Positions 7,615-63,520 of a stretch of 64,000 nt of DNA are shown here, piece after piece. The position numbers and the translations under genes are program-made. The stretch's first letter is position 1. Each line of letters begins with the position of its first letter. A model generated the notes under the pieces. That model worked only from the letters and a program-made list of their open reading frames with translations. It made no database searches and was not told the origin of the DNA. Source of the stretch: an uncultured Acidimicrobiales bacterium (GTDB taxonomy: Bacteria > Actinomycetota > Acidimicrobiia > Acidimicrobiales > UBA10347); NCBI GenBank assembly GCA_937991435.1, contig CALKPY010000005.1, positions 45,854 to 109,853 on the forward strand, read 5' to 3'.

Positions 7615-7620
7615 TCGCTC

Positions 7621-12067: not shown

Positions 12068-12934
12068 ATGGCTCAGGACTCGAAACGAGGCAACGACTGG
12101 ACCCTCGACACCGATGGTGACGGTCTCGGTCTTGATGACATCGTCAATCGCCTCGATTCGTTCCAGCTACTACGCAAATCTGACGGCGGCGAAGCCGACA
12201 AATTGCTCAGCGAGCTCGGGGCAAACAGCGAGATCGACCGCGACATTGTCTTGGAACTCGGAGCCCGACGTCCGCTCGGTCATCCAGAGCGGTTCGAAGA
12301 AGCTCACTCGCTTGCGGTTCGGTCGCTCGAGGTACTCGACCGAAACGGCCATCGGTCCATTCCCGTGCCGAAACTGGGGTTCCTCAGCCCGATCGTGCAG
12401 TTCTTGGTGCAAATCGTCACCCAGTTCATCGTGCGCAGTTACGTCGGCAGTGTGGTCGACCATATGAAGCGCCTGTATGAGCGACGCGAAGCCGCTTCGC
12501 CCCACGACTGGGAGCATCTGCCCATGTTGATCCGCGCTCGGATCCACACCGAGCGAATCATGCCGGGTTTCAAACGCAGCCGACTCGCGTTGCCGACGTT
12601 CTTGTTCGGCGGCGCCATCTTGTCGCCCGTAATCGGCTTGCTACGATCCGCGATCCTGTCCCAGATCACGAGCAAATTGTGGCGGAGCGTTTGGCTCATC
12701 GTCATTTTCGTGGTGCTGACTGTTGCGTCGTGGATCATCGTGCACGGAAGCGCAGTCGCCCGACGACGAATACGCCTCACATCGGAACGACCGGTGCAGT
12801 CCCTATGGGAAATCGTCGGGCGGTGCGGTCATCCGCCACGAGACCACAGCAAGGTGTTCGCAGTTATCGCACTCATCCTCACGATCGTCTCAGGCATCGT
12901 CGTGGTACTCGGCCTGATCAACGTCTTCTTCTGA
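12068..12934 (+). CDS. hypothetical membrane protein
   Basis: 288 aa. Soluble N-terminal half, then 3-4 predicted TM segments. No family recognised. Confidence 0.5.
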   Translation: MAQDSKRGNDWTLDTDGDGLGLDDIVNRLDSFQLLRKSDGGEADKLLSELGANSEIDRDIVLELGARRPLGHPERFEEAHSLAVRSLEVLDRNGHRSIPVPKLGFLSPIVQFLVQIVTQFIVRSYVGSVVDHMKRLYERREAASPHDWEHLPMLIRARIHTERIMPGFKRSRLALPTFLFGGAILSPVIGLLRSAILSQITSKLWRSVWLIVIFVVLTVASWIIVHGSAVARRRIRLTSERPVQSLWEIVGRCGHPPRDHSKVFAVIALILTIVSGIVVVLGLINVFF

Positions 12935-23961: not shown

Positions 23962-25035
23962 CTACTGCGCGGCGGGTCGAGCGCGAGTAGGTGCCGGACA
24001 ACACGCTCCGCCACATTGCGTAGGGTCGAGCCCACGGTTGCCCAGGGCACGAGGCTTGATCGAACTAATCCGTTCGTGCACGAGTTCAACAATTGCTGAG
24101 ATGAATCGCGGGTCGGTCCCCACCGTGCTGGCGCGGACGAACCCGAAGCCTCGGCGATCGGCCGCACGACGGGCGTCGGTGTCGAGGTCTTGGATGACTT
24201 CCATGTGATCGGAGATGAAGCCAATCGGAGCGATGACCACGCTGTCGTGATTCGACAACGAATCAATCGCATCACAAACATCAGGTTCTAGCCAAGGCAT
24301 ATGGGGTGGGCCAGACCGGCTCTGCCACACAAGTTGATGAGGTGGCATGTTCGGAACGAGTTCAGCGACCAAATCCATGACGTTGCAAAGCTGTTGTTCA
24401 TACGCCGATGTATCGGCCATCGATGTTGGAATGCTGTGCGCGGTAAACAAAACATGTGGATTCGCATGCGTGTTGTAAACAGTTGCCAGCGAGGCTGCAA
24501 CCGCGTCGGCGATGGGCACGACGAACCCCGGGTGATTGTAAAACACCCGCAGTTTCTCGATCTGTGGCGCACCATCGCCCACCGTCGCCTGCGCAGCAGC
24601 AATGTTCTCGCGGTACTGGCGACACGAGCTGTATGAGCTGTATGCCGAAGTCACAAACGCAAGGGCATTGGTGATTCCGTCGTCACGCATCTTCGATACA
24701 GCATCGACCAGCCAGGGGTCCCAGTTTCGGTTACCCCAGTAGATCGGAAGCTCGACACCGCTATCTGCCAGCGCCGGTGCAAGCGCTGCGATGAGCGACC
24801 GGCAGTGGTCATTAATCGGGCTCACTCCCCCGCGGTCGAAATAGTGTTGGCCTACCAGGCGAAGTCGTTCCTCAGGAATGTCGCGCCCGCGCGTCACCTG
24901 TTGCAGGAACGGCACTACATGCTCGGGCGCTTCCGGCCCGCCGAAGCTGACAACCAATAAGGCATCGATCGGTGCGAGCGGCGATGAGCTGGGGCCGCGA
25001 ACCGCAGCGGTCAAGGGGACTTCTGACACAGACAC
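23962..25035 (-). CDS. hemH: ferrochelatase (actinobacterial coproporphyrin ferrochelatase type with probable C-terminal [2Fe-2S] cysteines)
   Basis: 357 aa. Motifs FGGPE, SPIN, YWGNRNW and TAHSIP. Cys in SSCRQY plus the C-terminal QCGGACCP cluster resemble Fe-S-containing actinobacterial enzymes. Confidence 0.9.
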   Translation of the reverse strand: MSVSEVPLTAAVRGPSSSPLAPIDALLVVSFGGPEAPEHVVPFLQQVTRGRDIPEERLRLVGQHYFDRGGVSPINDHCRSLIAALAPALADSGVELPIYWGNRNWDPWLVDAVSKMRDDGITNALAFVTSAYSSYSSCRQYRENIAAAQATVGDGAPQIEKLRVFYNHPGFVVPIADAVAASLATVYNTHANPHVLFTAHSIPTSMADTSAYEQQLCNVMDLVAELVPNMPPHQLVWQSRSGPPHMPWLEPDVCDAIDSLSNHDSVVIAPIGFISDHMEVIQDLDTDARRAADRRGFGFVRASTVGTDPRFISAIVELVHERISSIKPRALGNRGLDPTQCGGACCPAPTRARPAAQ

Positions 25036-25129
25036 AGACCGTCACGCTAGCTCCCGTTGCGGCAGCTCGATTCGGCGGCAGTGTGCGACGAGGATGCTGT
25101 TGGAACCGCTTCGCTGTAATACTCGCCTG

Positions 25130-26038
25130 ATGAGGGCTGCACGAGCGAGAGCGCTGTCGACATCGCGCATTGCGCCCCGTCTTGTGGCTGCGGTAGCAGT
25201 GTGCGCGTGCCTCGGACTCATGGCCACGACCGCCTTCGCCCAGCTCGAACCGTCGCCCGATGACCCGGCGCTCTTTGACCTAGGGCTCGCACAACGCAAT
25301 CTGGCCACGATTGACAGTCGTATCGACGGTCTCAACGGCGAACTCGCCACTGCACTCGCCGAACTCGACGCGCTGTTGGTAAATCGAGATTTCCTTTCGA
25401 TGAACGGTGTCGCTCGGGCCGACGTGTTGAGTTCAGCTCGGGCCGAAGCTCGCGGTATGGCGGTCAACGCATACATCGGTCTCGGTCCACCGGTCTCTCG
25501 TCTGAGCGTGCTCGATGCAGAATCGGCGAGCGACTTGACCTATCGCAATGCCTTGTTGCGCCAGCAAACGCTGCGGCTACTCGATGCGGCCGGCGACTAT
25601 GAGATCCTGCTAGGCGCCGCCGATGAGACGGTTCAAGCACTAAGCGACAGAATCGATACGGCGAAGACTCGAGTTGCGCGCATTAACCGTGACCTACGTC
25701 GAGCCGAGGAACTGCGCCCACCAGCAGTATGGACGGTGAGCATCGCCGAGATCAACGCCATCGCCGACGATGAATACCGCACTGGTCGGTTTCGCGAAGC
25801 AAGCCGAGAACAGTGGCAGAAGCTGCGGTTCTGTGAGTCAACCGAGACCTATGGCGCAGATACTGGCAACACGTTCTATGGCGCGTACCAGTTCACCTGG
25901 GAAACATGGGGAACGGTCGGGGGTTCCGGCAACCCGGCGTTGGCTCCGCCAGCTGAACAAGACGCACGCGCCCGAGTGTTGCACTCGCGACGCGGCGCTC
26001 AACCGTGGCCGATCTGTGGCCGATTCGTTCGCGTCTAG
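25130..26038 (+). CDS. secreted protein with C-terminal Rpf-type (resuscitation-promoting factor) transglycosylase-like domain
   Basis: C-terminus WQKLRFCESTETYGADTGNTFYGAYQFTWETWGTVGG...PWPICG matches the Rpf lysozyme-like domain. Signal-like LVAAVAVCACLGLMATTAFA after ATG 25130. ATG 25094 is an alternative. The track start 24878 overlaps hemH. Confidence 0.7.
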   Translation: MRAARARALSTSRIAPRLVAAVAVCACLGLMATTAFAQLEPSPDDPALFDLGLAQRNLATIDSRIDGLNGELATALAELDALLVNRDFLSMNGVARADVLSSARAEARGMAVNAYIGLGPPVSRLSVLDAESASDLTYRNALLRQQTLRLLDAAGDYEILLGAADETVQALSDRIDTAKTRVARINRDLRRAEELRPPAVWTVSIAEINAIADDEYRTGRFREASREQWQKLRFCESTETYGADTGNTFYGAYQFTWETWGTVGGSGNPALAPPAEQDARARVLHSRRGAQPWPICGRFVRV

Positions 26039-26111
26039 GTCCCCATGCGTTGGCGCTTAGGTCCCCCTGCGTTGGCGCCCAGGTCCCCATGCGTTGGCGC
26101 CTAGGTCCCCC
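26037..26111. repeat. 22-bp intergenic tandem repeat, 3 good copies plus a degenerate fourth (aggtccccatgcgttggcgcct)
   Basis: Units at 26037-26058, 26059-26080 and 26081-26102 differ at 2-3 positions. The fourth unit keeps only aggtcccc. The array starts within the Rpf stop codon and ends about 50 bp before the next gene. Confidence 0.9.
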
Positions 26112-26160
26112 GCCTACGGCCGCGTTCCGCAGCCCATGCTGAGCTGGCTAAGATCAGGCG

Positions 26161-28146
26161 GTGACCGTGGCCGTCGTGCTCATTTTCTGCACCTGCATCG
26201 TTTCCGGCATCGGCCTCACCATGCACAGCGACCTGCAGATGCGGGCCGAAGAACGCTTTTTCAGCGGCTGGGTCATCGGCATCGTGGCGTTCACGCTGAT
26301 GGGGCTGCTCAGCACCCGCCTGTTCAGCTTCAACGGCACTGCTGTCGCTATTGCTGGCGTGCTCACGTTGGCCATGTCGGCAACTGGTTGGAAGCGCGGA
26401 CTTCACCTCTGGGCCGAAGAAACGCACGACCTGCGCCAGCGGTTGGCAAAACCGTTGCGCAGCGGCGAAAACCCAGTGCTGTTGTTCGCATTACTGGTTC
26501 CGTTCTGGATCATCATTGGCCGCCTGTTTTGGTACGCCTACCAGTACAACCCTGACGGCGGCATTTCATCTGGTCACCTGGCGAGTTGGACCGACTGGCA
26601 AGCCCACCTGACCTACACCGCGTCGTTCGCCTTCGCCGACAACACCGCGCTCAACCTGCCAACCGCCACCGGTAACAACATCGGTTACCACACCGGCATC
26701 AACTACTTCGCCGCTCTTCTCATACCTGGTGGCGCCTCTCTGCCGGGCTCGTTGCAGCTGTCTGGAGCATTCACCCTGTTTGCATTTCCCGGCGTCATGT
26801 ACAGCGTGGGCATGAGGGTGTTCCAACGGCAAGCAACCGCGCTGCTCGGCACGTTCCTATTTCTCTTCTTTGGCGGCTGGGGATGGCTCGAGTTCCGCAA
26901 AGACTTCGACGAACTCGGGTTTGACGTCTTCGACAGCCTTCCCAGGACCTACACACGGCTTCCCGGCCCTAACGAGGGAAGCTTCTTGCTCGAGAATCCA
27001 ATTGTTGGGCACTTCTTTCCGCAGCGCCCAACCATGATTGGTTTCCCCATCGTGTTGCTGCTGCTTGGGTGGCTGTACACCGCGTGGACCAAATCGAGCG
27101 ACGAAAACCGCACCATGACGCGCTCATTCATGTTCTGCGGCGTCTTACTCGGGCTAACCCCGTTCTTCAATCTCTTTGCCTTTGGTGCACCGCTTGTCTT
27201 TGTGCTTGGGTGGTTCGCATTGACCAAATTCAATACCCGGTGGCTCTACACCCTGGTGCCTGCGCTCGTGCTCGCCGCTCCCGTCGTGATCTTTTTGCAA
27301 CCGCCATCGAGCACCCTCGAAGTGCCCTATGACTGGGTCGGTCACATCTTGTATCCAGGGGGCATTCCGTCAGATCGGGGCACCGGCACGCTGATCTGGG
27401 ACTGGATCGTTTTTTGGGCCCGAAACATTGGAATCTTTGTCCCGCTTCTGGCCATTGCTCAGGCAGCGCGTGGCGTGCTCGATACTCGAATCGCATGGGG
27501 GCTCATGCCCGTCTGGCTGTTCTTCATCGGGCCGAACCTCGTAAAGCCGCACCCTTGGAACGGCAACAACACCCACTATTTCGTGTTGATACTTCTGATC
27601 GGCGCTCTTCCCGTGGCGGCTTTGATCGTGCACATCGTGCGCCGCGTGCCGCCAACGGTTCTGTTGGCGATTCCGGCGCTGCTGTCGATGACCGCATCGG
27701 GCATGCTCGACGTCTACGCAACCAACGACCGCGAGACGTCTCCGTATCCGGCGTTGGCGATGGACGGCGCCGCAGTGGCCGTCGGCGAATGGGCTCGCAC
27801 AACCGACAAAGACTCGGTATTCGTCATCGAAACGGGCTGGGACCCCGGAGACACATCCGGGCATCTCCACCCCGTGCCTGCCCTTTCAGGACGTGATGTC
27901 GTCGTTGGTTTCGACGGCTGGGTCTATGACCTCGGTATCCCCGACTGGTCGCTTCGTAAAGAACACAGTCGCCAAATTTTCGACGCAGCGCCCGGATACG
28001 AAGCGCTGCTCAAGACCTACGAAGTCGACTATCTCGTGATGGGGCCGACCGAACGGACTCCAAGCTGGGATCCGAATATTGCATTCTGGGAAGAGGAAGC
28101 AGATGTCGTCTATCGCCACGCCGGCTGGACCGTCTTCAAAATCTGA
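26161..28146 (+). CDS. large polytopic membrane protein, GT-C-like (putative glycosyltransferase), function unknown
   Basis: 661 aa with more than 10 hydrophobic segments. The first loop after TM1 reads HSDLQMRAEERFFSGW, resembling the HPDERFW / HHDES loops of the two neighbouring proteins. Soluble C-terminal domain of about 130 aa. Confidence 0.6.
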   Translation: MTVAVVLIFCTCIVSGIGLTMHSDLQMRAEERFFSGWVIGIVAFTLMGLLSTRLFSFNGTAVAIAGVLTLAMSATGWKRGLHLWAEETHDLRQRLAKPLRSGENPVLLFALLVPFWIIIGRLFWYAYQYNPDGGISSGHLASWTDWQAHLTYTASFAFADNTALNLPTATGNNIGYHTGINYFAALLIPGGASLPGSLQLSGAFTLFAFPGVMYSVGMRVFQRQATALLGTFLFLFFGGWGWLEFRKDFDELGFDVFDSLPRTYTRLPGPNEGSFLLENPIVGHFFPQRPTMIGFPIVLLLLGWLYTAWTKSSDENRTMTRSFMFCGVLLGLTPFFNLFAFGAPLVFVLGWFALTKFNTRWLYTLVPALVLAAPVVIFLQPPSSTLEVPYDWVGHILYPGGIPSDRGTGTLIWDWIVFWARNIGIFVPLLAIAQAARGVLDTRIAWGLMPVWLFFIGPNLVKPHPWNGNNTHYFVLILLIGALPVAALIVHIVRRVPPTVLLAIPALLSMTASGMLDVYATNDRETSPYPALAMDGAAVAVGEWARTTDKDSVFVIETGWDPGDTSGHLHPVPALSGRDVVVGFDGWVYDLGIPDWSLRKEHSRQIFDAAPGYEALLKTYEVDYLVMGPTERTPSWDPNIAFWEEEADVVYRHAGWTVFKI

Positions 28147-30646
28147 CAACGCCCCCGACGTTCGAGCCTGGCTCGCACGGGTGCCCGTGCCCCGACTCGG
28201 CGCGATTATCTGGGGACTCGTCATCATCGCTCTCGCTCTGCGGCTTTGGGAGCTCGGCGAACGAGCGATGCACCACGACGAAAGCCTCGATGCATGGTGG
28301 AGTTGGCGATTCCGGGTTGGAACCTACGACGGTTACGACCCCGTGTATCACGGTCCTTTGCGGTTCTACGTCACCGCAGGGCTGTACGAACTGTTCGGCG
28401 AGAGCGAAGCCACGGCGCGCCTGTTTTCGGCCTTGTGTGGCACCGCAGTTGTTGGGCTTCCGTGGTTTCTTCGCCATGAACTAGGCCGTCTCGGAACCAT
28501 CGCAGCATCGACGGCGCTCTGTGTCAGCCCCACGATGCTCTACTACAGTCGGTTTGCCCGAGAAGATGCCCAGATGGTGTTTCTGGCCATGCTTGGTCTG
28601 GTACTTGGCCTTGCCTACCTGAAACGTCCTCGAATCTCCGTCGCTGCCGGACTGATGTTCTCACTCGCCGCCAGCTTCGCAATCAAGGAATCGACCTACC
28701 TCTTTGGGTTACTTATCGCGGTCTATGCGGTGATTGTGTTGGCCGCACAGTTCGATGCCCAACAGCGCTACTTCGACGGCCGCTCCGATGAACCTGAGCG
28801 CCTGCACGCCGGTTTCTTTGCCTCGGCCATGGGTCTCGCAAGCGTCGGACTTATTGCTGTTGCGGTCTCAGGCAACCTCGGCGATGAGCTCTTTGCCGCA
28901 ATCGCCCTCTACTTTGCGGTACTCGCGGCGTTCGTGTTCGTTGTTGCGCTACCCCGGTTGAGGGTGGCTCGCCTGCACTGGAGCCAGCTAAACATTGGCG
29001 CATCGGTGATTGCGCTCGTCGCCATGGCTGCTGCTGGCCTCGCAATGAGCAGGCGAGACTTCGGTACCCGACCGGTGCTTGAAGACGGTTCGCTCGATTG
29101 GAGCCTTGGTTACGTCGCTCTCGGCGCGCTCATCGCACTCTGCGGGCTGTGTGTGGTTTGGGCAACCTTCGGCTACCAGCGAGACCCTTCGTCTCTGGTC
29201 GCTGCTAACGATTCAGCGATGTCGTCGCCAATCATCCCCGCTTTTGGCGGTGCCCTGCTCGGTGCAGGCTTACTGATCATGATCGGTGAATATTTGAGCG
29301 TGCTCACCCCTGGCGCGTTGGTAATCCTCGTGTTGGTCTGTTGCCTGGCCATTGCGTCACTAGTGGCGTTTCGCCCCCAGGTCACGAACCCTGATTTCCA
29401 GTGGCCGTCGACGCTCCGCTCGATTGGTGCAATCGGCTGGATCGGATGGGGCATCGCACTCGTGGTGTTTGCCGTTACGTGGGTGGTGTGCTTCACGGTC
29501 TTCTTCGAGCGGCGCGGTGACTGGGCAACCGGATTCACCAGCGCCATCAACTACTGGGATAGCCAACAAGAGGTCAACCGTGGCGGCCAGCCCTGGTACT
29601 ACTACCTGTACGCATTGCCCGCGTACGAGTGGCTGTTTGTCGGCTTGGCATTCGTCGGCGGTTGGCGGGCGCTTCGCCGTCCAACAGTAACGACCGGTGT
29701 CTTCGTCTGGTTCACAATCGGCAGTCTGATTCTGTACAGCTACGCCGGCGAACGCATGCCCTGGCTCATCGCCCATCCGCTTCTACCGTTGCTGGTCGTC
29801 GCTGGTCTCGGCGTCAACGTGTTGTGGGAGAACCGCCACAGGGCTCTCATGCCAGCCGTCGCGGTAGCGCTGTTGTTCGGCCTCCTAGCCACCACCGGCA
29901 CATCGGTACGGTCGAGCTTCTCCAACGGCGCCGATGGGCGTGAGATCCTCAGCCAAGCGGGCCAGGCCACGCCGCACCTGGTGGCCGCGCTCGAACGCAT
30001 CGAAAATATCGATCGCATCGCCCGGCAGAGCACCGGCGAATCGGTGCGTATTGCGGTGCCGACATCAAACGCATGGCCGTACAGCTGGTACTTCCGGGAG
30101 AATCCAAACATCGTCTGGTATGGCGACGAAGGACCGCCGCGCGACGGCAGCGTCGACATCATCATCGCCGACTACGGCACGATTGAGCCGTCAGAGTTCG
30201 ATGACTATTTCGCCACGTTGTATGCGATGCGGTCGTGGTGGGTTCCGACATACACCGACGCCAGCGTGATCGACTGGGTCAGCTGGGTTCGCGACCGATC
30301 GTTGTGGGAACAAGATCCCAACCCGAACTTCGCTGGAATTACCGAAGTTGAAGAACTCGATCAAGACTTTTCTCAGCTCGACAAGGCTGAGCGTCTCGGC
30401 GATGGCATCAACGACGCAGCGTCGCGGTGGATCGGTTTTGCTGGCGCAGATTCCGATCGCGTTCCCGATGCGATCGACCCCAACGCCTATGTCGAGCCAG
30501 ACGATGGTCGCGACGGGTGCGGGTCCGTTGATCAGTGGTTCATGGTCAGCGGGCGTTACGCCTGGATTGAGTTGACGAGCTACCCAGGGCCAATCGATGC
30601 AATGGCGCCGCTCGCCTGTGCCAGCGATTCGTTCGCAACCCCATAA
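28103..30646 (+). CDS. TIGR03663-type membrane protein (PMT/ArnT-like GT-C fold, DE + HGP motifs), function unknown
   Basis: N-terminal LRLWELGERAMHHDESLDAWW (DE at 28277-28282) and YDPVYHGPLRFY (HGP at 28349-28357) match the invariant DE and HGP described for TIGR03663. Many TMs. The start is uncertain (28079, 28103, or later). Confidence 0.75.
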   Translation: MSSIATPAGPSSKSDNAPDVRAWLARVPVPRLGAIIWGLVIIALALRLWELGERAMHHDESLDAWWSWRFRVGTYDGYDPVYHGPLRFYVTAGLYELFGESEATARLFSALCGTAVVGLPWFLRHELGRLGTIAASTALCVSPTMLYYSRFAREDAQMVFLAMLGLVLGLAYLKRPRISVAAGLMFSLAASFAIKESTYLFGLLIAVYAVIVLAAQFDAQQRYFDGRSDEPERLHAGFFASAMGLASVGLIAVAVSGNLGDELFAAIALYFAVLAAFVFVVALPRLRVARLHWSQLNIGASVIALVAMAAAGLAMSRRDFGTRPVLEDGSLDWSLGYVALGALIALCGLCVVWATFGYQRDPSSLVAANDSAMSSPIIPAFGGALLGAGLLIMIGEYLSVLTPGALVILVLVCCLAIASLVAFRPQVTNPDFQWPSTLRSIGAIGWIGWGIALVVFAVTWVVCFTVFFERRGDWATGFTSAINYWDSQQEVNRGGQPWYYYLYALPAYEWLFVGLAFVGGWRALRRPTVTTGVFVWFTIGSLILYSYAGERMPWLIAHPLLPLLVVAGLGVNVLWENRHRALMPAVAVALLFGLLATTGTSVRSSFSNGADGREILSQAGQATPHLVAALERIENIDRIARQSTGESVRIAVPTSNAWPYSWYFRENPNIVWYGDEGPPRDGSVDIIIADYGTIEPSEFDDYFATLYAMRSWWVPTYTDASVIDWVSWVRDRSLWEQDPNPNFAGITEVEELDQDFSQLDKAERLGDGINDAASRWIGFAGADSDRVPDAIDPNAYVEPDDGRDGCGSVDQWFMVSGRYAWIELTSYPGPIDAMAPLACASDSFATP

Positions 30647-33600
30647 ATCGCCAACCCCCGCTCGCCGCTGAACACTTCGACCAGCGCCGGATGGGTTCGA
30701 AACAACTCAAGGGTGGCCGGATTAGCCGACGCCCGTTCCAAGGTTCCAACGACGACAAACTCAACGTCGTAGGTTCGTAGGAACCTTGTGACTTCGGCTG
30801 GGTCGGTCGTTTGATACAGCGCATCGACGTCGCGAATGCGCTCACCTACCTTGCCGCTAAAGATCCCACGTTGTTGTTCCTGGTGCCACTGCCAGCCAAC
30901 AACAGCTGGGAGCCCAGTATTGATGCTCATGCGTGACCACCACTGATAAAGCGGGCCGACACCTTCGACGATCGTGGGGCGCCCCTCAACCCGGCGCAAC
31001 CACTCAATGAGCGCCAGGTCTTCAGATGGGTCAACCCGGTGTTCGTTGTCACGAAGATCTCGCACCCCGACCTCGACTACTCCTGGCTTAAGCCAGATGG
31101 TTCCGTCAAGCGAAGGGCCCAGGGTCGAATCAACCCGTGCGGCTTGCCGAGGAAGCACTGCAAGCACCGGATACGCCATCGCTGCGACCAACAACAACGA
31201 GAAACCAACACGGAACCCTTGCTGCAGGCGAGGACGCACAAGCGCCCAATCGATGGTCAGCGCAGATCCGACGCGGTCGCGAACTGGTGTGCTTGTGCGA
31301 TGCTGGACCACTTCAGACAGCAGCCACATCGCCGAAAATGCCGTTGCTACGGCAAACAGGTGCCAGACCTGCAACCAGAACTTAAACACCGTGTTCAGAC
31401 GAGCGATATCAGCGTTGAAGGTAAAGATTTCAACGGCAACCAATACAGCAAACCCAAGGAGCCAACACGCTGCCACAATCGTGTGCGCCGTTGACACCTG
31501 TTGCCTGCCGATCTCGAACAGCAACACTGAAGCGGCGAGGCTGAGGCCAACGAAGGCCCATGCGGCCACCGAACCGACGAGCAGGTGTATTCCTACGAAC
31601 CCGCAAAGTATTGCGGGGGCCGCCACGATCGACGTCATAGTTCGAGCGGCGAAAAGTTGTGTGAGCCGAACCACAAGATACGCCGCGCCCACAAACAGGA
31701 ACACGCCCCAGTGGGCAATCCAGTCGTCGAGGTTGGTCTGCGACTCGGCCCGGTGCACACCCGTATCGGTGGCCTGATTGTTCGAACGGTAAGGCGCTGA
31801 CACCACGAGATGGGCGACGCCGAATGCCACAAGACGGATGAAAGCGTCTCGAACCCTCCACCAGCGTGGCCCTGTGCCGATGATCGCCCCGATGATGATG
31901 CTGGCGCCGCCGATGGCGCCGACGGCGGGAAGATCCCAGGTGTGCACCATGCGCACCACAGCTGTCAATGCTCCCATAGCAGCGACGAGCACGATGACTG
32001 GCTGCGAACGCCTCGAACGCTCGACTACAAACACCGCCAGCCCGAGCATGAGCCCAAAGAACGTCATGTTCATGAAATGGGGATGCAGGTCCGCGAACAG
32101 AATCGTGAAGCTTGGGAATTCGGTGACCTCGAACCCCGCGCTGTTCTTGTTCACCCGGCTCGGGTCCCACCAGTCGAAATCAACGAGCGGCAGGTCTTCG
32201 CGCAGACGTCGTATCGCTTGGCGAAACGCGTCGAGGTTTCCTACAACAGCAAACAGCACCGCGGTCAACAACCCCGCCCGCGCCGGAGACAAGCGTCTTC
32301 CGGTTTGGCGATGGGCTAGATCAGCCAGCACGGCCGCAGTGGCAAATACCGTGACAACGGCGAGGGCTGCGTAGGTAGCAACGCCGAGATTGAAGGTCAC
32401 CGCCGGCAATAGACCGAGGAGTTTGGCGGGCACCGCCAGCATGAACCAGCCGCCGTAGTAGTAATTCAACGCACCACCGGCGAACCAAGGGTCATACGGT
32501 GGCAATGTCGTCGAGCCAGTAACCGCAGTCAAGTACGCGAGCTCCATGGGCTTTTCGCCGCCTTGCCATGGGTGCCACGAGTCAGGATTCAGCGCACGGA
32601 GCGCCAGAACGGCAAGGAATGCCAGCGTGAAGATCAATTCCGCTTGCCACATGATTCGGCGATGAGCGTGCCATACAGCAACGAGTTCCTTGGCGTTGCG
32701 ACGGGCCATTACGACACCACCGCAGACCAGAACCAGTAGAACGAACCCGATCAACCTTGTTGAAAAGGTGGCCAAGCCAAATGAGACGATTAGCCAAACA
32801 GGCATGGCGAAGGCAAGCAGGCCAATGACTTTGCTATAGCCATAAGCCACGCCCGCAGAACGGCCTGCCAGCTTGGCGACCACCGGAATCGACGCGAACG
32901 CAGCGATTTGTAAGATCGCGTACCACGACACCGCAGCACCAAGACCGCTCGATTCGTTGTGGTGCACCGCATCAAAACCATCGCCAGATTGCTGCGCCTC
33001 GTAGCTGGCGGGCCGCAACATCGCCGCGTTGGCATAGGCGTCTTTGGGTACCGCGTTTATCGCGGTACGAGCCCGATCCGGGTTGAGCAGTTGGGTCGCG
33101 CGGTCGCGGCTGAACTGACTGGTCTTGCGCCAGATGTACACGGTCGGGTGGTCATAGACGGTGAAGGCTTCCTCGGCGCGCGAATCGTCGATTGTCAGCC
33201 CGAGTAACGATGGCTGATTCTGAAACGTCGCCAACAACTCGAAGCCGAGGGATCCGTCGAACAAACGCTCGTAGTAGGTCGTGATCTGAGGGAAGCGGGC
33301 CGGTGTCAGCGGCAGAGCATCATAAAACTTGTTGCTCGACTCGATCACGTAGTCAGTCGCATCGAGACCGTCGATTAGGTTCGTGATGCCCTCGGTAGTG
33401 TCGCCAACAAACGAGAATGGCCGCAGCACGATGTATTCGAACTCAGAAGGCTGACCCCACGGCAAGCCGTCATCCCATTCTTGAACCGTGACCGCGGCGG
33501 TTGGCGGCAGGTTGTCGAGCATCCAGTCGCCGGCGGCCATGCGAGCGTTGTCATTGCCATACACGCCGTTCGCGAACGCCAACCCCCAGAACACCGTTGC

Positions 33601-35004
33601 GCCGACCGAGAGCACGACCAGACCACGAATGAGGCGAGCGAGTTCAGGACGCAGCTGCTCAGCGGTTGCGCTACGCCAAAGAGCTACGAGTCCGCAGCCA
33701 GCCAGGGCAGCAAGCACCGGATACGCCGGTTGCAGGTATCGCACGATGGCGTAGAACTGAAATGTGACCAGGACCAGATACGCGGCGACAACCGCGAGCG
33801 GAATCGCCCAATAGTGCTCACCTCGGCGAATTCGCATGGCGGCACGCACACAACCGGCCAGAGCAGCGAGCGCCAAACCAGGTCCCATGCCCCAGAGAAA
33901 TAGCTGCTTGAGTGGGTGCCACAACGGTGTCTTGCCGACGAGCGGCTGAACCCACGGCCAGTTGCCGCCTTGGTTGACGTCTGACAGGTACGCGATGTCC
34001 TTTTCGAACTCAGCGTTAAAGATGAGCGACAACCCCGCCTGAAAGTCATACGGCTGCACGACGCGATAGGCGACCACCGAAGCCAACGCCATCACGATCC
34101 AGGGTTCAACGCTTCGGAACAAAGACCGGAAGCCCGATCGAATCTCGGATCGTTGCCGCAACGAATCGAGGTGAGGCCAAGCGACAACGAGGGCTGCGAC
34201 CATAGGGGCCGCAAACGCCGCGACGCCGTTGAGTTTCGAACCAATGGCGCAGCCCAGCGCAAGCGCGGTTAACAGCCTGGTCGGCCAACCGCCCTGGCCG
34301 CGCGCGAGCCTGACCGACCCGAGAACGGCGCTCGCAACGAAAAAGGCCACCCACGGTTCGCTTCCGAGAAAGTGGGAGTACTGAATGTGCAGAACGGTCA
34401 GGGCCTGCAACAGCGCCGCCAACAACCCAGCTCGACGGCCCATGAGAGCCGCCCCGAGAGCGAACACAACCAACACAGTCGCCGTGTCGACAAGCGCACT
34501 CATCAGTCGTCCGACGATCGTCACGTCGTAGCCCGTGTTGAACCGCAGTCGCTCCCCCACCGGGCCGTCACGGTCGTGAAGCAGATTGATACCAATGGCG
34601 TCTAGTCCGCTGGTCACCGGCGCCATGAAATCAGTCATCAGAACCGCTGCCGCGGCCTCAGACGCCCACAGCGGCAGGGTGCCGTAGACGTAGTTGTCTT
34701 TGTACACCCGAGGATTCAGCGGCGACCGCTCAGGATCGAGTACCTCGCTGGCGGTCCACTGATCTGGGTTCTGCACGTTGGCAGCGACATCGCTCCAGAA
34801 TCGCTCGTCGGGGTGCAGATGGGTGCCTCGATCCCAGTCGAGGTTCCAGGCACGAAGCGCAAACGCGAGCAGCAAAATGAGCGCGAGCAACCATCGGTGA
34901 CGGTCGATAAGACGGCGCGGAGTAGACGCTCTTTGCGTTTTCGCATCGATGTGAGCGCCCTCTATGAGTGCGCCCTCGATGTGCGCGGTGTCAGCTGAGC
35001 TCAC
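30580..35004 (-). CDS. DUF2298 / Chlor_Arch_YYY (TIGR03662-type) giant polytopic membrane protein with N-terminal PMT-like module
   Basis: 1474 aa. N-terminal LRAWNLDWDRGTHLHPDERFW (DE at 34804-34809). Central GALNYYYGGWF motif (YYY codons at 32456-32464). More than 25 hydrophobic segments. Soluble C-terminal domain. Confidence 0.8.
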   Translation of the reverse strand: MSSADTAHIEGALIEGAHIDAKTQRASTPRRLIDRHRWLLALILLLAFALRAWNLDWDRGTHLHPDERFWSDVAANVQNPDQWTASEVLDPERSPLNPRVYKDNYVYGTLPLWASEAAAAVLMTDFMAPVTSGLDAIGINLLHDRDGPVGERLRFNTGYDVTIVGRLMSALVDTATVLVVFALGAALMGRRAGLLAALLQALTVLHIQYSHFLGSEPWVAFFVASAVLGSVRLARGQGGWPTRLLTALALGCAIGSKLNGVAAFAAPMVAALVVAWPHLDSLRQRSEIRSGFRSLFRSVEPWIVMALASVVAYRVVQPYDFQAGLSLIFNAEFEKDIAYLSDVNQGGNWPWVQPLVGKTPLWHPLKQLFLWGMGPGLALAALAGCVRAAMRIRRGEHYWAIPLAVVAAYLVLVTFQFYAIVRYLQPAYPVLAALAGCGLVALWRSATAEQLRPELARLIRGLVVLSVGATVFWGLAFANGVYGNDNARMAAGDWMLDNLPPTAAVTVQEWDDGLPWGQPSEFEYIVLRPFSFVGDTTEGITNLIDGLDATDYVIESSNKFYDALPLTPARFPQITTYYERLFDGSLGFELLATFQNQPSLLGLTIDDSRAEEAFTVYDHPTVYIWRKTSQFSRDRATQLLNPDRARTAINAVPKDAYANAAMLRPASYEAQQSGDGFDAVHHNESSGLGAAVSWYAILQIAAFASIPVVAKLAGRSAGVAYGYSKVIGLLAFAMPVWLIVSFGLATFSTRLIGFVLLVLVCGGVVMARRNAKELVAVWHAHRRIMWQAELIFTLAFLAVLALRALNPDSWHPWQGGEKPMELAYLTAVTGSTTLPPYDPWFAGGALNYYYGGWFMLAVPAKLLGLLPAVTFNLGVATYAALAVVTVFATAAVLADLAHRQTGRRLSPARAGLLTAVLFAVVGNLDAFRQAIRRLREDLPLVDFDWWDPSRVNKNSAGFEVTEFPSFTILFADLHPHFMNMTFFGLMLGLAVFVVERSRRSQPVIVLVAAMGALTAVVRMVHTWDLPAVGAIGGASIIIGAIIGTGPRWWRVRDAFIRLVAFGVAHLVVSAPYRSNNQATDTGVHRAESQTNLDDWIAHWGVFLFVGAAYLVVRLTQLFAARTMTSIVAAPAILCGFVGIHLLVGSVAAWAFVGLSLAASVLLFEIGRQQVSTAHTIVAACWLLGFAVLVAVEIFTFNADIARLNTVFKFWLQVWHLFAVATAFSAMWLLSEVVQHRTSTPVRDRVGSALTIDWALVRPRLQQGFRVGFSLLLVAAMAYPVLAVLPRQAARVDSTLGPSLDGTIWLKPGVVEVGVRDLRDNEHRVDPSEDLALIEWLRRVEGRPTIVEGVGPLYQWWSRMSINTGLPAVVGWQWHQEQQRGIFSGKVGERIRDVDALYQTTDPAEVTRFLRTYDVEFVVVGTLERASANPATLELFRTHPALVEVFSGERGLAIYGVANESLAQASGAIASIGPG

Positions 35005-35039
35005 AAGGCGTGCACCAACATCAGAGAAAATGTTCAGGC

Positions 35040-35333
35040 TCAGGCGTCGCCAGGAACGAGATGCGGAACCTGGTCGCGCATAGCCGTCAATACCTCATCG
35101 AGGCTCGGGTTGACCAGCGCCGTCTCACCTATTCGCAGGGTCGGAACGACTTCATTGCCGTTGGCGACCGAGCGCACAAACGCTGCATGATCGGTGTTTT
35201 CCCAGATGTTGAACTTCGCAAAGGGCACCGCTGCCGACGTCAACGAGCGCTCCAACCCGGCGCAGAATCCGCACCCGGGACGCCAGAAAAATTCGATGTG
35301 GTCAGCGGCTGCATCGTGGGACTCCGGGATCAT
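35040..35333 (-). CDS. mycoredoxin-like glutaredoxin family protein
   Basis: 97 aa. FFWRPGCGFCAGL (CxxC) and NGNEVVPTLRIGETALVNPS, which resembles the mycoredoxin C-terminal signature. Confidence 0.7.
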   Translation of the reverse strand: MIPESHDAAADHIEFFWRPGCGFCAGLERSLTSAAVPFAKFNIWENTDHAAFVRSVANGNEVVPTLRIGETALVNPSLDEVLTAMRDQVPHLVPGDA

Positions 35334-35380
35334 TAGGCAACACTACCGAGGATGACTTCCCTCAGAGGTGGCACCCGCCC

Positions 35381-37138
35381 GTGATTCTTGTTGACGCCCA
35401 GGGAATTTCCCTCAGCCATCACGGCGGGATTGTGATCGATAACGCGTCGTTTACCGTCCAATCGGGGGACCGCATTGGAGTAGTCGGTCACAACGGAGCA
35501 GGAAAGAGCACGCTTCTCGGCCTGTTGACCGGTCAGATCACACCCGACTCTGGAGTCGTGCGCAGCGAAGGCGGCGTGCGTATGTCTGCGTTGGCTCAAC
35601 AACCGGTATTTGACGACGTAACAGCTCTCGTTGCCGTCGGTGACTCTTGGGAAGCCGAAGCCGTGCTCGACCGCCTCGGCCTCGGCGACCGGGTCAACGA
35701 CAATGTGCTGACTATGTCGGGCGGCGAGCAGCGCAGGGTGGCGCTCGCTCGGGCCTTGGTCGCGCCATGCGACCTGCTGATTCTCGACGAACCCACCAAC
35801 CATCTAGACATCGACGCCATCGACTGGCTCGAGGAACGGCTTGGCAAATTCAACGGCGGTCTACTTCTTGTTTCGCACGATCGACACCTGCTCGATGCAG
35901 TGACGACACGCATGCTTGAAGTCGATAAGGGTGCGCTTCACAGCCACGAGACCGGCTACCGCGGCTATCTGCAAGCGCGAGAGAGCCGTGTCGCGGCCGA
36001 TGAGCAAGCCGAGACGGTTCGAAGCAATCTCGCTCGGCGAGAAGCTGAATGGCTCAAGCGCGGCGCACCGGCGCGCACCCGTAAGCCAAAGGCACACATC
36101 GCTCGAGCCGAAGCCGTGCAGGTCAGCACCAGATCAAACGACATTCGCGATGGCGGCCTAAACCTGCATAGCCAAACGCCGCGACTCGGTACGCAGGTGA
36201 TCGAACTCGAGAACGTGAGCGCCTCGATCGGCGATCGGGTTCTGTTCCGAGAAATGACCGCGCTCCTCGACCCCAACGAACGCCTCGGGATTGTCGGGCC
36301 GAACGGCACCGGCAAGTCGACGCTGCTCGACATCATCGCTCGGCGACGCGAACCGTCAGAGGGCCGGGTGACGATTGGTTCAACGGTGCAACTCGCGTAC
36401 TTCGACCAGATGGGGGCCGGTCTCGACTCGAAACAGCGGGTTATCGATGCCTTTACCGGAGGGCGCCGCGAGCCCGATTGGCGCGACAAGGCGCTGCTTG
36501 AACGATTCTGGTTTGACGCTGCCACCCAGTATTCGCCTATTGGCGATCTTTCTGGCGGTGAGCGTCGCCGTTTACAGCTGGTGATGGCACTCGCTCAGAA
36601 CCCGAACGTCTTGTTACTCGATGAGCCAACCAACGACCTCGATCTCGACACCTTGCGCGCTCTCGAAGATTTCCTCGACGACTGGCCCGGCGCTCTGGTC
36701 GTCGTGAGTCACGACCGGGCGTTCCTGGAACGGGTGGTGACCGATGTCGTCGTCATCGACGAGTCACTCCGGGCCGAGCGCCGTCCAGGCGGCTTCGCCG
36801 TGTGGGTCGAAGAACGGCGGTCGCAACGGCGACGTGGCCATGCCGTGCGAAAATCGACTGAAACCTCAGCGACTTCGCCGCCCGAGCGAACAGGTGAGCC
36901 ACAGGTTACTTCAAATCCGACACGTTCAAAGTCGACGATTCGACACGACCTGAAACAGGCGGACAAGGCGCTGGCTAAAGCAACCAACAAGGTCGAGGCG
37001 CTTCAAGCCGACATTGAAACTCTCACAGACCATCAAAAACTGGCAGACGTTGGCACCGAGCTTCAGCGCGCCCAGAAGCATCTTGATGAGATCGAAGAAC
37101 GCTGGATCGAGCTGTCGGTCGAGCTCGAAGACAGTTGA
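35381..37138 (+). CDS. ABC-F family ATPase (two ABC domains plus C-terminal coiled coil, Uup-like)
   Basis: Walker A GHNGAGKST and GPNGTGKST. Signatures LSGGEQRRVALA and LSGGERRRLQL. No TM domain. 585 aa. Confidence 0.9.
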   Translation: MILVDAQGISLSHHGGIVIDNASFTVQSGDRIGVVGHNGAGKSTLLGLLTGQITPDSGVVRSEGGVRMSALAQQPVFDDVTALVAVGDSWEAEAVLDRLGLGDRVNDNVLTMSGGEQRRVALARALVAPCDLLILDEPTNHLDIDAIDWLEERLGKFNGGLLLVSHDRHLLDAVTTRMLEVDKGALHSHETGYRGYLQARESRVAADEQAETVRSNLARREAEWLKRGAPARTRKPKAHIARAEAVQVSTRSNDIRDGGLNLHSQTPRLGTQVIELENVSASIGDRVLFREMTALLDPNERLGIVGPNGTGKSTLLDIIARRREPSEGRVTIGSTVQLAYFDQMGAGLDSKQRVIDAFTGGRREPDWRDKALLERFWFDAATQYSPIGDLSGGERRRLQLVMALAQNPNVLLLDEPTNDLDLDTLRALEDFLDDWPGALVVVSHDRAFLERVVTDVVVIDESLRAERRPGGFAVWVEERRSQRRRGHAVRKSTETSATSPPERTGEPQVTSNPTRSKSTIRHDLKQADKALAKATNKVEALQADIETLTDHQKLADVGTELQRAQKHLDEIEERWIELSVELEDS

Positions 37139-37926: not shown

Positions 37927-39585
<1,659 letters not shown>

Positions 39586-45561: not shown

Positions 45562-48048
45562 TCAACCGACAGACGGGTCAGCAGGCCACGAATGTTTCGG
45601 ATAACGCCCCGCCATGTCCTTGCGTACCTCGCTCCAGCTTCCCTTCCAGAAACCAATCAAGTCAGCGGTTCGTTGGATCGGACGCTGGGCGGGAGACAGC
45701 AACTCGATTGTGAGGGGTAGCGCCCCATCAAGTATCGACGGATGAACCGCCACACCGTAGAAGTCTTGAGCACGGGAGGCGATCAGCGGGTGTTCGCCTG
45801 AATAGTCAATGACCAATTTGCGCCCAGACGGAAGCTCCTGACGCAACGGAACAAGGCGGTCGAGGTCGCGCCGGCGTTGGTGTCCAATCACCGAGTCGAG
45901 GGCAACAGCAACGGACACGATCTCGATGTCGGCCCGAGAGATCGCGCCAGGAATGAACGGACGCAACCATGTGTCGAGACTGCGTATCAACGCCTTGTCG
46001 CTGAGGTCGGGCCAATCGTTGTCGATGAGATGCCGGCGCAAGAACTCAACACGCTGCTGCAAACCACGAGCGGTGTCAGTCCATGTCAGAGCCTTCAGCC
46101 GCGACGCCCGCACATGCTCCAGAAGCAGCTCTGTGACCTCGTCAGACGCTTCGGGCCTGCGGCGACTCGAACCAAGGTCCAACGCACCCAAATGCCGTTC
46201 TACGACGATGTACGGGTCCTTGCGCTCGCGGTCCCACTTCAGACGTTCTGTCACCTCAGCATCGAAGCCAGCGGTTTCGAGCAAGTCGTTGCCATCGACC
46301 GAAGCCGCCAGCCTGACCCGCGAGTCTTTCTTTGGGCCCGCTACATCGAGCGCCACCAGGAAATCTTCGCCCGCAAGTTCATCTCGTTCAGCGACCCGCA
46401 CGCCCGAACCGTTCCGCACCCGGAATCGACCCCGTCCGGCGCCCCGGCGTTGCGCGATCCGATCTGGGAATCCGGCGGCAACCACAAGCCCGAGACGATC
46501 GATGTCGACCGCTCGGTCTTTGCAGCCGACTCGACGAGCGAGATCTTCTGCACGCCGTCGGACATGACCGAGAGACCGCCCCGAGGCTGCCTCGTGTCTC
46601 GCTGTGGGGTCATCGATCAGCCTGACGCGCAGGGCAAGGTCGGTTGGCACCTCACCTGGCCGGCCGCGCAGAACATCGCGCTCATCGATAGCTGCGGCAG
46701 CGATGCAGCCCATCCAGCCGACGCCCCGATCGATCGCGGTCAGCACGATTGACCCAAGTCGCGGATGCAGCGGCATCTGGCTGAGTTTGCGACCGCGATC
46801 GGTGAGCATGGCGTCGTCGTCGATTGCGCCAAGCATGGCCAATACGTCTCCAGCTTCGTCCCATGCGCGCTGCGGCGGGTGGTCGAGCAGTCGAAGACCC
46901 GTCGTGTCACGGACTCCCCACATGGCCAGCTCCAGTCGCAATGGCGCCAAGTCAACTTGCGTTAGCTCAGCTGGTGAAAAGGCCGACCGGGTTCCATGTT
47001 CGATCTTTGACCAGAGCCGCACGGCCGCTCCAGGGCCAAGACGCCCCGCACGGCCGGCGCGCTGATCGGCCGAGGCGCGCGAGATCGACACGGTGGAGAG
47101 CCGAGTCATGCCGGTGGCTACATCGAAGCGGGGCGCTCGGGCGACGCCAGAGTCGATCACACAGCTCACCCCGTCGACCGTCAACGAACTCTCGGCAATG
47201 TCAGTGCTGAGCACAACCTTGCGCCGCCCCGGCCGAGACGGGGCGATCGCCAGATCCTGCTCGTCGAGCGGCAGGCTTCCGTGTAACGCCAGCACGTCGA
47301 CGCCGGAGTCAAGATCAGACAAAGCGGACCGCACCCGCTGGATCTCTGCCATACCCGGCAAAAAGACCAGCAGGTCGCCAGACACAACGTTTGTAAGCGC
47401 CCAGCGGACCGCCTCGACAACTGCAGGTTCGAGGTAGTCGCGCCGGTCACGGGCTCGCCAATGCATATCGATGTCAAAGGTGCGTCCGGCGCACGCAACA
47501 ACCGGCGGTGGGTCGGCGGGGTCGAGCAAGGCGGCTACCCGCTCAGCATCGATCGTCGCGGACATCACCAACACGCCGAAGTCGAGGCTAAATCCCTGAC
47601 GGGCGTCGAGCAGCAAGGCCAACCCGAGGTCACCTTGTTGGTTCCGCTCGTGAAACTCATCAAAGATGACAAGTCCGGTGCCGGCAAGGGTTGGATCGTT
47701 TTGCAAGCGCCTGGTGAGTACACCTTCGGTGACCACCTCGATACGAGTTGCCTTGCTGACCCGGCGGTCGTCTCTTGTCGTCACACCGACGGTTTCCCCG
47801 ACGGCCTCGCCCAGCAGTTGAGCCATGCGAGCGGCTGACGCACGCGCTGCGAGCCGACGCGGCTCGAGCATGACGATGCGCCGAGAATCAAGCCAGGGTT
47901 CGTCGAGTAACCGCAGCGGAACCACAGTTGTCTTGCCAGCGCCAGGTTCGGCCGTCAGTACGCACATCGAACGGTCGGCTAACGCGTTTTTGATATCTGC
48001 GATAACTGACTCGATTGGCAGGCCTGTCGGCGCAGCGGAGCGGGTCAA
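45562..48048 (-). CDS. hrpB: ATP-dependent RNA helicase HrpB (DEAH family)
   Basis: TAEPGAGKTT, DEFHERN, MSATID, TDIAESSLT and QRAGRAGR. 828 aa with an HrpB-type C-terminal domain. Confidence 0.9.
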   Translation of the reverse strand: MTRSAAPTGLPIESVIADIKNALADRSMCVLTAEPGAGKTTVVPLRLLDEPWLDSRRIVMLEPRRLAARASAARMAQLLGEAVGETVGVTTRDDRRVSKATRIEVVTEGVLTRRLQNDPTLAGTGLVIFDEFHERNQQGDLGLALLLDARQGFSLDFGVLVMSATIDAERVAALLDPADPPPVVACAGRTFDIDMHWRARDRRDYLEPAVVEAVRWALTNVVSGDLLVFLPGMAEIQRVRSALSDLDSGVDVLALHGSLPLDEQDLAIAPSRPGRRKVVLSTDIAESSLTVDGVSCVIDSGVARAPRFDVATGMTRLSTVSISRASADQRAGRAGRLGPGAAVRLWSKIEHGTRSAFSPAELTQVDLAPLRLELAMWGVRDTTGLRLLDHPPQRAWDEAGDVLAMLGAIDDDAMLTDRGRKLSQMPLHPRLGSIVLTAIDRGVGWMGCIAAAAIDERDVLRGRPGEVPTDLALRVRLIDDPTARHEAASGRSLGHVRRRAEDLARRVGCKDRAVDIDRLGLVVAAGFPDRIAQRRGAGRGRFRVRNGSGVRVAERDELAGEDFLVALDVAGPKKDSRVRLAASVDGNDLLETAGFDAEVTERLKWDRERKDPYIVVERHLGALDLGSSRRRPEASDEVTELLLEHVRASRLKALTWTDTARGLQQRVEFLRRHLIDNDWPDLSDKALIRSLDTWLRPFIPGAISRADIEIVSVAVALDSVIGHQRRRDLDRLVPLRQELPSGRKLVIDYSGEHPLIASRAQDFYGVAVHPSILDGALPLTIELLSPAQRPIQRTADLIGFWKGSWSEVRKDMAGRYPKHSWPADPSVG

Positions 48049-63462: not shown

Positions 63463-63520
63463 GACACCAGTATGGCGTGCGGCTGGTTCAGGGTCTCGGG
63501 CTGGCTCATAGAATCGTGAG

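Follow-up and report, generated by a model that had tools for sequence, protein, structure and literature searches.

Paired PMT_2/Agl23-type and YYY/DUF2298-type GT-C-like modules in a conserved gene cluster of Acidimicrobiia

Glycosylation through a polyprenyl-phosphate sugar synthase, a flippase and a glycosyltransferase of the C-type fold (GT-C) is an established paradigm, known as the three-component pathway (Gtr-type systems, Citrobacter GT136; PMC11127046). Agl23 of Haloarcula hispanica is a putative flippase for hexose-phosphate-dolichol that rescues a yeast rft1-delta mutant and, when purified, moves M5GN2-PP-lipid across liposome membranes (PMC11182771, 2024). Its family, TIGR03663, is named 'flippase activity-associated protein Agl23' in NCBIfam. 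The description of this family gives an invariant DE dipeptide, an HGP tripeptide and two arginines near the N-terminus, and a D-E/HGP-type signature in the first outer loop is catalytic in PMT/ArnT-type GT-C enzymes. The GT-C enzymes PimE, Mpt and Emb/Aft of Corynebacteriales make lipoglycans and arabinogalactan from polyprenyl-phosphate donors. A second family, Chlor_Arch_YYY/DUF2298 (TIGR03662, PF10060), has been listed as a genomic neighbour of PMT_2 in a member of the Chloroflexi (PMC8756737); we found no functional literature on DUF2298, TIGR03662 or the 'YYY domain'. Here we describe a gene cluster encoding members of both families, together with a third large membrane protein, in a stretch of 64,000 nucleotides (nt) from an uncultured Acidimicrobiales bacterium (GenBank assembly GCA_937991435.1, contig CALKPY010000005.1, positions 45,854 to 109,853 of the forward strand). 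This whole stretch is referred to as the window, and positions are those of the window. An earlier reading of the same DNA, made without database searches (the sequence-only reading), had suggested that the cluster encodes an envelope or protein glycosylation machine, a general idea that our results support.

The three proteins, designated A, B and C, and the two halves of C are encoded as follows:

26161-28146, plus strand: protein A, an open reading frame (ORF) of 661 aa; the public gene model (P0001) has 659 aa and starts at 26167
28079-30646, plus strand: protein B, an ORF of 855 aa; the gene model (P0172) has 847 aa and starts at the ATG at 28103
30580-35004, minus strand: protein C, 1474 aa
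32968-35004, minus strand: N-terminal module of C (residues 1-679), a PMT/PMT_2-type GT-C module with an outer soluble domain of ~210 aa
30580-32967, minus strand: C-terminal module of C (residues 680-1474), a Chlor_Arch_YYY/DUF2298 domain with a predicted GT-C fold

Profile comparisons indicate that A and B together form a split, order-swapped counterpart of the fused protein C. As the N-terminus of C is not a member of TIGR03663, this correspondence holds at the level of module type only. Full-length homologues with E = 0 number in the dozens to hundreds for each of the three proteins, which rules out chance ORFs, and the ORFs and all motifs quoted in the sequence-only reading were indeed found where it had placed them. 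The genes for A and B lie on the same strand and overlap by 44 nt (28103-28146), and those for B and C are convergent, with 3' ends that overlap by 67 nt (30580-30646). In related genomes the ends of B and C overlap by 4 nt or are separate, so that the 67-nt overlap is either lineage-specific or reflects a variable tail of B.

Protein B scored 235.4 bits against TIGR03663 (curated cut-off 126.25) in two stretches, the best of which aligns residues 45-274 with positions 5-229 of the 435-position model, and 40.8 bits (3.4e-10) against Pfam PMT_2. The motifs HHDES (28271-28285) and YHGP (28346-28357), on which the assignment to TIGR03663 had initially been based, lie in the first outer loop, where HHDESLDA and YHGP are invariant. 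Across 21 homologues (31-59 % identity) the invariant residues are H57, H58, D59, E60, H83, G84, P85, R87 and R106, so the DE, the HGP and the two arginines of the family description are all present. The N-terminal arrangement is classical, with a positively charged N-terminus followed by the first transmembrane helix and then HHDES; the remainder comprises a PMT_2-type GT-C region with a transmembrane insertion in the middle of the protein (~170 residues) and a C-terminal soluble domain of ~240 aa. As in the description of the TIGR03663 family, B adjoins a gene of the YYY family. It differs from the archaeal protein in its bacterial origin, in its length of 847 aa against a model of 435 positions, with the insertion and the C-terminal domain just described, and in its lipid carrier, which would be a bacterial polyprenol instead of dolichol; activity is known for the archaeal Agl23 only. 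A late loop of B contains an invariant motif, RGGQPWYYYL (29588-29611), that superficially resembles the AGGxLNYYYGG of the YYY domain, which may reflect a shared ligand site or coincidence.

In protein C, the N-terminal module matches PMT (PF02366, 34.1 bits) and PMT_2 (PF13231, 25.1 bits) at residues 163-284, the PMT match being partial (model positions 83-210 of 245). Its arrangement is as classical as that of B, a positive N-terminus and first transmembrane helix preceding the motif HPDERFW (34795-34815) in the first outer loop, in which P-D-E-R is near-invariant. Actinobacterial Pmt (family GT39) and the GT-C enzymes of Corynebacteriales likewise use polyprenyl-phosphate sugars, and act on envelope glycans and on secreted proteins including Rpf2. 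The resemblance of B and of the N-terminal module of C to these enzymes is restricted to the PMT/PMT_2 matches; the PMT_4TMC and MIR domains typical of GT39 were not found in A, B or C with Pfam. The window proteins belong to other families (TIGR03663 or unnamed), and their host belongs to the Acidimicrobiia, a class without a known mycolata-type envelope.

The C-terminal module of C is a full-length member of the YYY/DUF2298 family (residues 690-1455), with 450.4 bits against TIGR03662 (cut-off 300.25; model positions 4-725 of 727) and 305.8 bits against PF10060 (cut-off 27.8; positions 2-488 of 488). It carries the motifs NPDxWHPxxGGEKP, NYYYGG, DLHPH, RxNTVFKF and GWxWHQxQQR. The hallmark YYYxG, correctly recognized in the sequence-only reading as NYYYGGW, is located at 32446-32466 (residues 847-853), with N, Y, Y, Y and G invariant in 27 sequences. 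D129 and E138 of the YYY domain are also invariant and lie in a long loop, poor in lysine and arginine, after the fourth transmembrane helix; they are candidate catalytic residues. Compared with the family at large, the domain in C is positioned behind a PMT_2-type module, a fusion that we found in at least 120 homologues.

Protein A, a polytopic protein with a C-terminal alpha/beta domain, gave no match to Pfam or NCBIfam at E <= 0.01. It is not a member of TIGR03662 or PF10060, as it lacks both a match to their hidden Markov models (HMMs) and the YYYxG hallmark, which is replaced by IGYHTG in A and by YPF in the wider family. In profile-to-profile comparison with hhalign, however, A aligned with the YYY domain of C over 580 columns when a narrow alignment was used (Prob 97 %, E 5e-11), and over 571 columns when the family alignment was broadened (Prob 99.3 %, E 3.6e-20). 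The similarity begins at the second transmembrane helix and extends as far as the last strand in the soluble domain at the C-terminus. The following motifs are paired (A first, YYY domain of C second):

GHLASWTDWQAH with WHPWQGGEKPME
IGYHTG with NYYYGG
FFPQRPT with FADLHPH
NNTHY with RLNTVFKF
VDYLVMGPTER with VEFVVVGTLER

On the basis of these alignments A is a remote, stand-alone and diverged homologue of the YYY/DUF2298 domain, with GYH in place of YYY and PQRPT in place of DLHPH. The sequence-only reading had taken A for a third paralogue-like protein; a paralogy of A and B was rejected at an hhalign Prob of 0.4-1.6 %. B and the YYY domain showed no similarity in hhalign either. B and the N-terminal module of C are alike over ~187 columns (Prob 96.6-97.3 %, E 6e-10 to 1.7e-11). 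HMMER gave no cross-matches between A and the YYY domain of C or between B and the N-terminal module of C, and the kinship is thus visible between profiles only.

The AlphaFold2 model of A, built with 25 homologues, had a predicted local distance difference test score (pLDDT) of 89.6 and a predicted template modelling score (pTM) of 0.91, and for residues 680-1474 of C these values were 87.8 and 0.91. In Foldseek searches of the PDB the top 19 matches of the A model were all GT-C enzymes (DPY19, STT3/OST, AftA, PglB, ArnT and AftD; probability 1.00, E 2e-7 to 8e-3), and later matches had probabilities of <=0.14 with the exception of two further GT-C proteins, Pmt1-Pmt2 (0.72) and AftB (0.51). 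The top nine matches of the YYY-domain model were likewise all GT-C (STT3A, DPY19, AftA, ArnT; probability 1.00), and the next ones did not exceed 0.2. With the GT-C_A enzymes (STT3/PglB, DPY19, AftA/AftD, ArnT; E 2e-7 to 1e-2 for the two models together) A and the YYY domain share the overall fold, with a polytopic core and, after it, a soluble domain on the outer side; the invariant acidic residues in the putative first outer loop of each are candidate counterparts of the catalytic one. They differ in having four additional transmembrane helices before the core, TM-scores of 0.3-0.5 and no detectable sequence similarity to PDB chains; sequence and profile searches of the PDB gave nothing meaningful for any of the three families, and matches came from fold comparison alone. 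Together with the PMT/PMT_2 matches of B and of the N-terminus of C, these models suggest that the cluster contains four GT-C-type modules, in agreement with the GT-C-like nature previously proposed for the three proteins.

The location of the putative active site of A could be narrowed down by residue conservation and topology:

26572-26697, plus strand: candidate catalytic loop of A (residues ~126-190), with GHLASWTDWQAH and IGYHTG; D143 and H147 are invariant

Among 43 members of the A family with 21-39 % identity, D143, H147, Y174, G236, R287, N420, G422 and N468 are invariant. The sequence-only reading had instead placed a PMT-type first loop at the HSD (26224-26232) and EERFF (26248-26262) motifs near the N-terminus. 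Both motifs are present, and E28, E29 and R30 of EERFF are nearly invariant, but on topology grounds we rejected EERFF as the catalytic first loop, which it probably is not. It is two helices away from loop 71-98, which has six lysines and arginines, and it should therefore be on the same, presumably cytoplasmic, side of the membrane; in our topology model the EERFF segment is probably cytoplasmic. The loop ~126-190 follows four helices, is nearly free of lysine and arginine, and sits on the opposite side, with hhalign pairing its GHLASWTDWQAH with the first outer loop of the YYY domain. On the basis of these alignments, this loop with D143 and H147 is the putative equivalent of the first external loop of GT-C enzymes and the candidate catalytic loop of A. 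The near absence of lysine and arginine from the loops with acidic residues is consistent with an outer location.

The family to which A belongs is large. An exhaustive profile search, with clustering at 50 % identity, found 4147 clusters at a threshold of E <= 1e-3, of which 1312 were retained at E <= 1e-30. The family has members in Acidimicrobiales, Candidatus Curtissbacteria, Acidobacteriota and Thermobaculum terrenum. Members mostly have ~640 aa, and the Pfam coverage of the family consists of a weak 61-residue match to DUF6798 in the soluble tail. A could be the basis of a new family in Pfam or CAZy.

For the conservation of the arrangement we scanned genomes with the A family, which yielded 53 loci, all from Acidimicrobiia, and annotated these with our own HMMs for A, B and both halves of C on six-frame ORFs. 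B follows immediately after A in ~50 of the 50 Acidimicrobiia loci with downstream sequence, often overlapping or 3 nt apart, and this adjacency is 100 % over lineages in which the identity of A falls to 36-39 %. The gene for C is convergent with that for B in the clade of the window and in several others (related loci L002, L005-L008, L043, L044, L047, L051, L060 and L062), in line with the earlier expectation that TIGR03662 and TIGR03663 genes are often neighbours. The order hemH (minus strand), rpf (plus strand), A, B, in some loci C, ABC-F and nifU is widely kept. In Ilumatobacter sp. L060 (GCA_039989255.1, 1405-15527) A, B and C are found together at a different chromosomal site, without rpf. 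This locus also carries a UDP-galactopyranose mutase (Glf; 291 bits, cut-off 304), a glycosyltransferase family 2 (GT2) gene with ArnC, PgfS, PpgS and dolichyl-phosphate hexose transferase, all polyprenyl-phosphate sugar synthases, as top matches (all below cut-off), a fusion of a family 4 glycosyltransferase (GT4) and a methyltransferase, further methyltransferases and another PMT_2 gene. This setting suggests a galactofuranose-containing envelope glycan. ArnC/PpgS-like GT2 genes are also present near the cluster in L001 and L062. Ilumatobacter L060 could possibly serve as a cultivable model.

Further away, a Thermobaculum-like locus has a bona fide PMT gene 4 nt from a family-A gene, and genuine PMT+PMT_4TMC genes lie beside family-A genes in L057 and L058. 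The latter locus (Candidatus Curtissbacteria, GCA_016183325.1, 2819-13052) is a dense GT-C cluster, in which three family-A paralogues (359, 167 and 333 bits) lie beside the PMT+PMT_4TMC gene and a YfhO/PTPS-like GT-C gene. The most distant homologue of A from word searches, P0051 in L003 (GCA_039812865.1; 27 % identity), is accompanied by a convergent gene for 1241 aa (4678-8403, minus strand) that does not match the profiles of A, B or C. A protein annotated as from the sea spider 'Nymphon striatum' (P0207, GQR58_029571, 1470 aa) is 67 % identical to A over residues 1-590 and, after a switch of frame, matches B over 620-1251. We rejected this as a natural A-B fusion, as it looks like a merged or frameshifted gene model from Acidimicrobiia contamination of the sea-spider genome.

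We favor, with a confidence slightly above even, that the locus directs extracytoplasmic envelope glycosylation by GT-C modules that use polyprenyl-phosphate sugars, with one module of each type per unit. Such a unit would consist of a PMT_2/Agl23-type module (B, or the N-terminal half of C) and a YYY/DUF2298-type module (A, or the C-terminal half of C), and would occur here twice, as the adjacent, overlapping genes A and B and as the single fused polypeptide C. In the proposed pathway a cytoplasmic GT2 enzyme would place a sugar onto polyprenyl phosphate. The lipid-linked sugar would reach the outer leaflet, a step to which the Agl23-type module is tied experimentally in a haloarchaeon, and the modules would then pass the sugar to a cell-envelope acceptor at the outer face of the membrane. 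For this transfer the modules would use conserved acidic residues of the first outer loop: the D-E pair for B and likewise for the N-terminal module of C, D143 for A, and D129/E138 for the YYY domain. As the acceptor, lipoglycan or a polysaccharide of the cell wall is most likely, and secreted proteins, among them the co-oriented Rpf-like enzyme, are possible. Our data show the family memberships, the GT-C folds, the A-YYY homology and the strict A-B adjacency; donor, acceptor, complex formation and the identity of the catalytic modules are inferred. The invariance of acidic loop residues in deep alignments, the PMT-type gene that abuts a family-A gene in a Thermobaculum-like locus and the three-component paradigm (PMC11127046) also speak for the proposal. 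The Glf/GT2/GT4 context in Ilumatobacter makes an envelope glycan the likely acceptor, and the GT2 genes in L060, L001 and L062 are indirect evidence for the use of a lipid-phosphate-linked sugar donor. The archaeal data suggest that the Agl23-type module translocates or presents the donor, and its invariant DE and HGP suggest that it may itself be a transferase.

Several observations weigh against this proposal. No GT2, flippase or sugar-nucleotide genes were found among the ~50 window ORFs scanned against Pfam. The TM-scores of A and the YYY domain are moderate, the likeness of B to the N-terminus of C spans only ~190 columns, and the latter has no match to TIGR03663. A lacks the YYY and DLHPH motifs, and its mode of action may consequently differ or catalysis may be lost altogether. 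The sponge-symbiont clade Poriferisocius has no C within 10 kb, and of the four distant family-A genes two are solitary. The hemH, moaA, ABC-F and nifU neighbourhood is conserved housekeeping synteny, so that the adjacency of rpf may be lineage gene order. Finally, no RNA run was found to hold the sequence of the region; the only match was one marine DNA metagenome run, in which 95 % of the sampled 31-letter words of the region were present. Compared with three-component systems, the pathway logic is the same and ArnC/PpgS-like GT2 genes are nearby in L060, L062 and L001. Among the window ORFs scanned, neither a GT2 polyprenyl-phosphate sugar synthase nor a small flippase (GtrA/MATE-type) was found, and GT2 genes are near the trio in relatives only. 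Two to four GT-C modules would act together instead of one, and the candidate translocator, of the Agl23 type, is itself GT-C-like in sequence.

The same evidence can be read as a strict division of labor, in which the Agl23-type modules (B and the N-terminal half of C) would be translocators or presenters only and the YYY-type modules (A and the C-terminal half of C) the sole glycosyltransferases, the pair amounting to a compact three-component system whose flippase has a GT-C fold. This fits the NCBIfam title of TIGR03663, the transport of M5GN2-PP-lipid in proteoliposomes and the rescue of yeast by Har. hispanica Agl23 (PMC11182771), the recurrence of one module of each type, neighbouring or fused, and the three-component paradigm (PMC11127046). 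We nevertheless consider it unlikely. B retains the invariant D-E and HGP in its first outer loop, for which a pure translocator has no obvious need; flipping was demonstrated in vitro and by yeast complementation, with a heterologous substrate and for an archaeal protein that is distantly related to B, and the native substrate of Agl23 is described as putative (PMC11182771). Equally tentative is the version in which the pair is obligate, the Agl23-type protein delivering a polyprenyl- or dolichyl-phosphate hexose and the YYY-type protein acting as the extracytoplasmic transferase that uses it, with Rpf or a cell-wall glycan as the acceptor here. If true, such a pair of deliverer and transferase would explain what DUF2298 and the large unnamed A family do, and members of these families would become candidate enzymes for glycosylation steps at the outer face that are still unassigned in Archaea, Chloroflexi and Acidimicrobiia.

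A distinctly unlikely explanation is a dedicated protein O-glycosylation system, in which rpf, A and B form an operon and A and B glycosylate the Rpf-like enzyme and other exported proteins. The gene concerned, the cell-wall enzyme gene already pointed out in the sequence-only reading, is the following:

24878-26038, plus strand: Rpf-like secreted muralytic protein, with a Transglycosylas domain (PF06737, 1.5e-16) at ORF residues 308-380

It lies immediately upstream of A on the same strand, an arrangement that recurs, with ~100-120 nt between the two genes, in ~47 of 52 related loci. B and the N-terminus of C match PMT/PMT_2 models, and the top Foldseek matches of A and the YYY domain include the protein-modifying STT3/OST, DPY19 and PglB; the glycan- or lipid-modifying AftA, ArnT and AftD, however, match about equally well. 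The idea draws on an analogy with Pmt-dependent mannosylation in Corynebacterium glutamicum, where Rpf2 is reportedly a substrate of Pmt (Hartmann 2004 and Mahne 2006, in the reference list of PMC11727336). Against it, the Rpf-like protein has no obvious linker rich in serine, threonine and proline, the GT39-typical MIR and PMT_4TMC domains were not found with Pfam, four related loci have no rpf upstream of A, and the Ilumatobacter trio is without rpf in a polysaccharide-type cluster (Glf, GT2, GT4). As the whole neighbourhood is syntenic, the link with rpf could be historical and not functional. Against the NCBIfam Rpf models the protein scored 64 bits, under the cut-off. Its longest ORF overlaps hemH (23962-25035, minus strand) by 158 nt, and the true start is probably M73 (25094) or M85 (25130), ahead of a signal-peptide-like segment that is followed by a coiled-coil-like region and the Rpf domain.

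That the genes encode independent, merely co-located GT-C enzymes or partly non-catalytic scaffolds, with a meaningless pairing and A as a possibly inactive paralogue, would agree with the missing YYY and DLHPH motifs of A, the solitary distant family-A genes and the generally rigid synteny of the lineage, but is very improbable in view of the A-B adjacency that persists despite the divergence of A, the trio that stays together after relocation in Ilumatobacter, the fusion of the same two module types in at least 120 proteins, and the invariance of D143, H147, R287 and N468 in a family of >1300 clusters, which argues for a conserved active site.

The presence of the two families in an actinobacterial context had been presented as unexpected, which did not hold: PGAP, the NCBI annotation pipeline, already applies the labels Agl23 and 'DUF2298 domain-containing protein' to genes of Acidimicrobiales and Ilumatobacter, and the cluster occurs in >50 Acidimicrobiia genomes. 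B and C belong to named families, of which they are ordinary representatives, and the cluster is real, conserved and common in Acidimicrobiia, so that it is not a new kind of system. The statement that the families have no assigned function is outdated for TIGR03663/Agl23 (PMC11182771) and agrees with our literature search for DUF2298. New results are the GT-C fold predicted for A and for the YYY domain, the kinship of A with the YYY domain as seen in profile comparison, the large family without curation that A stands for, and the strict pairing of the two module types together with candidate catalytic residues. For DUF2298/YYY, for the A family of >4000 clusters and for the question whether Agl23 is a flippase or a transferase, these results offer a model open to test, in which uncultured marine Actinomycetota, Chloroflexi and Archaea would share a widespread and so far unstudied module for envelope glycosylation.

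The actinobacterial context itself was confirmed, as the nearest homologues of A, B and C are from marine Acidimicrobiales/Acidimicrobiia metagenome-assembled genomes, with up to 72 % identity for A. The G+C content of the window is ~60 %, without a compositional break. No tRNA genes were found in the window, an Rfam scan of it returned no families, and a scan of 24800-35500 for promoters and terminators gave no promoters, and terminators only at background level. Other features in and around the cluster are:

upstream of the trio: genes for an M16 peptidase, moaC, moaA and hemH, followed by the Rpf-type transglycosylase gene that adjoins A
downstream of C: genes for an ABC-F ATPase and nifU
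26026-26110, plus strand: tandem repeat of a 22-nt unit (CGTTGGCGCCTAGGTCCCCATG) with 3.9 copies (Tandem Repeats Finder score 135), covering the rpf stop codon and the rpf-A spacer

The 22-nt repeat has three exact-pattern copies against none expected, and no second site in the window. It is missing from 62 related loci and is lineage-specific, and its RNA structure is not significant (z -0.46).

Elsewhere in the window, several sizeable ORFs have an absent or weak Pfam match (37927-39585, 48045-49256 and 62167-63561 on the minus strand; 12068-12934 on the plus strand), the 552-aa ORF among them having as its sole Pfam match a weak N-terminal DUF2510. A 717-aa protein (49289-51442, minus strand) combines DUF937, Fasciclin and an OmpA-type peptidoglycan-binding domain, an unusual envelope architecture for an actinobacterium.

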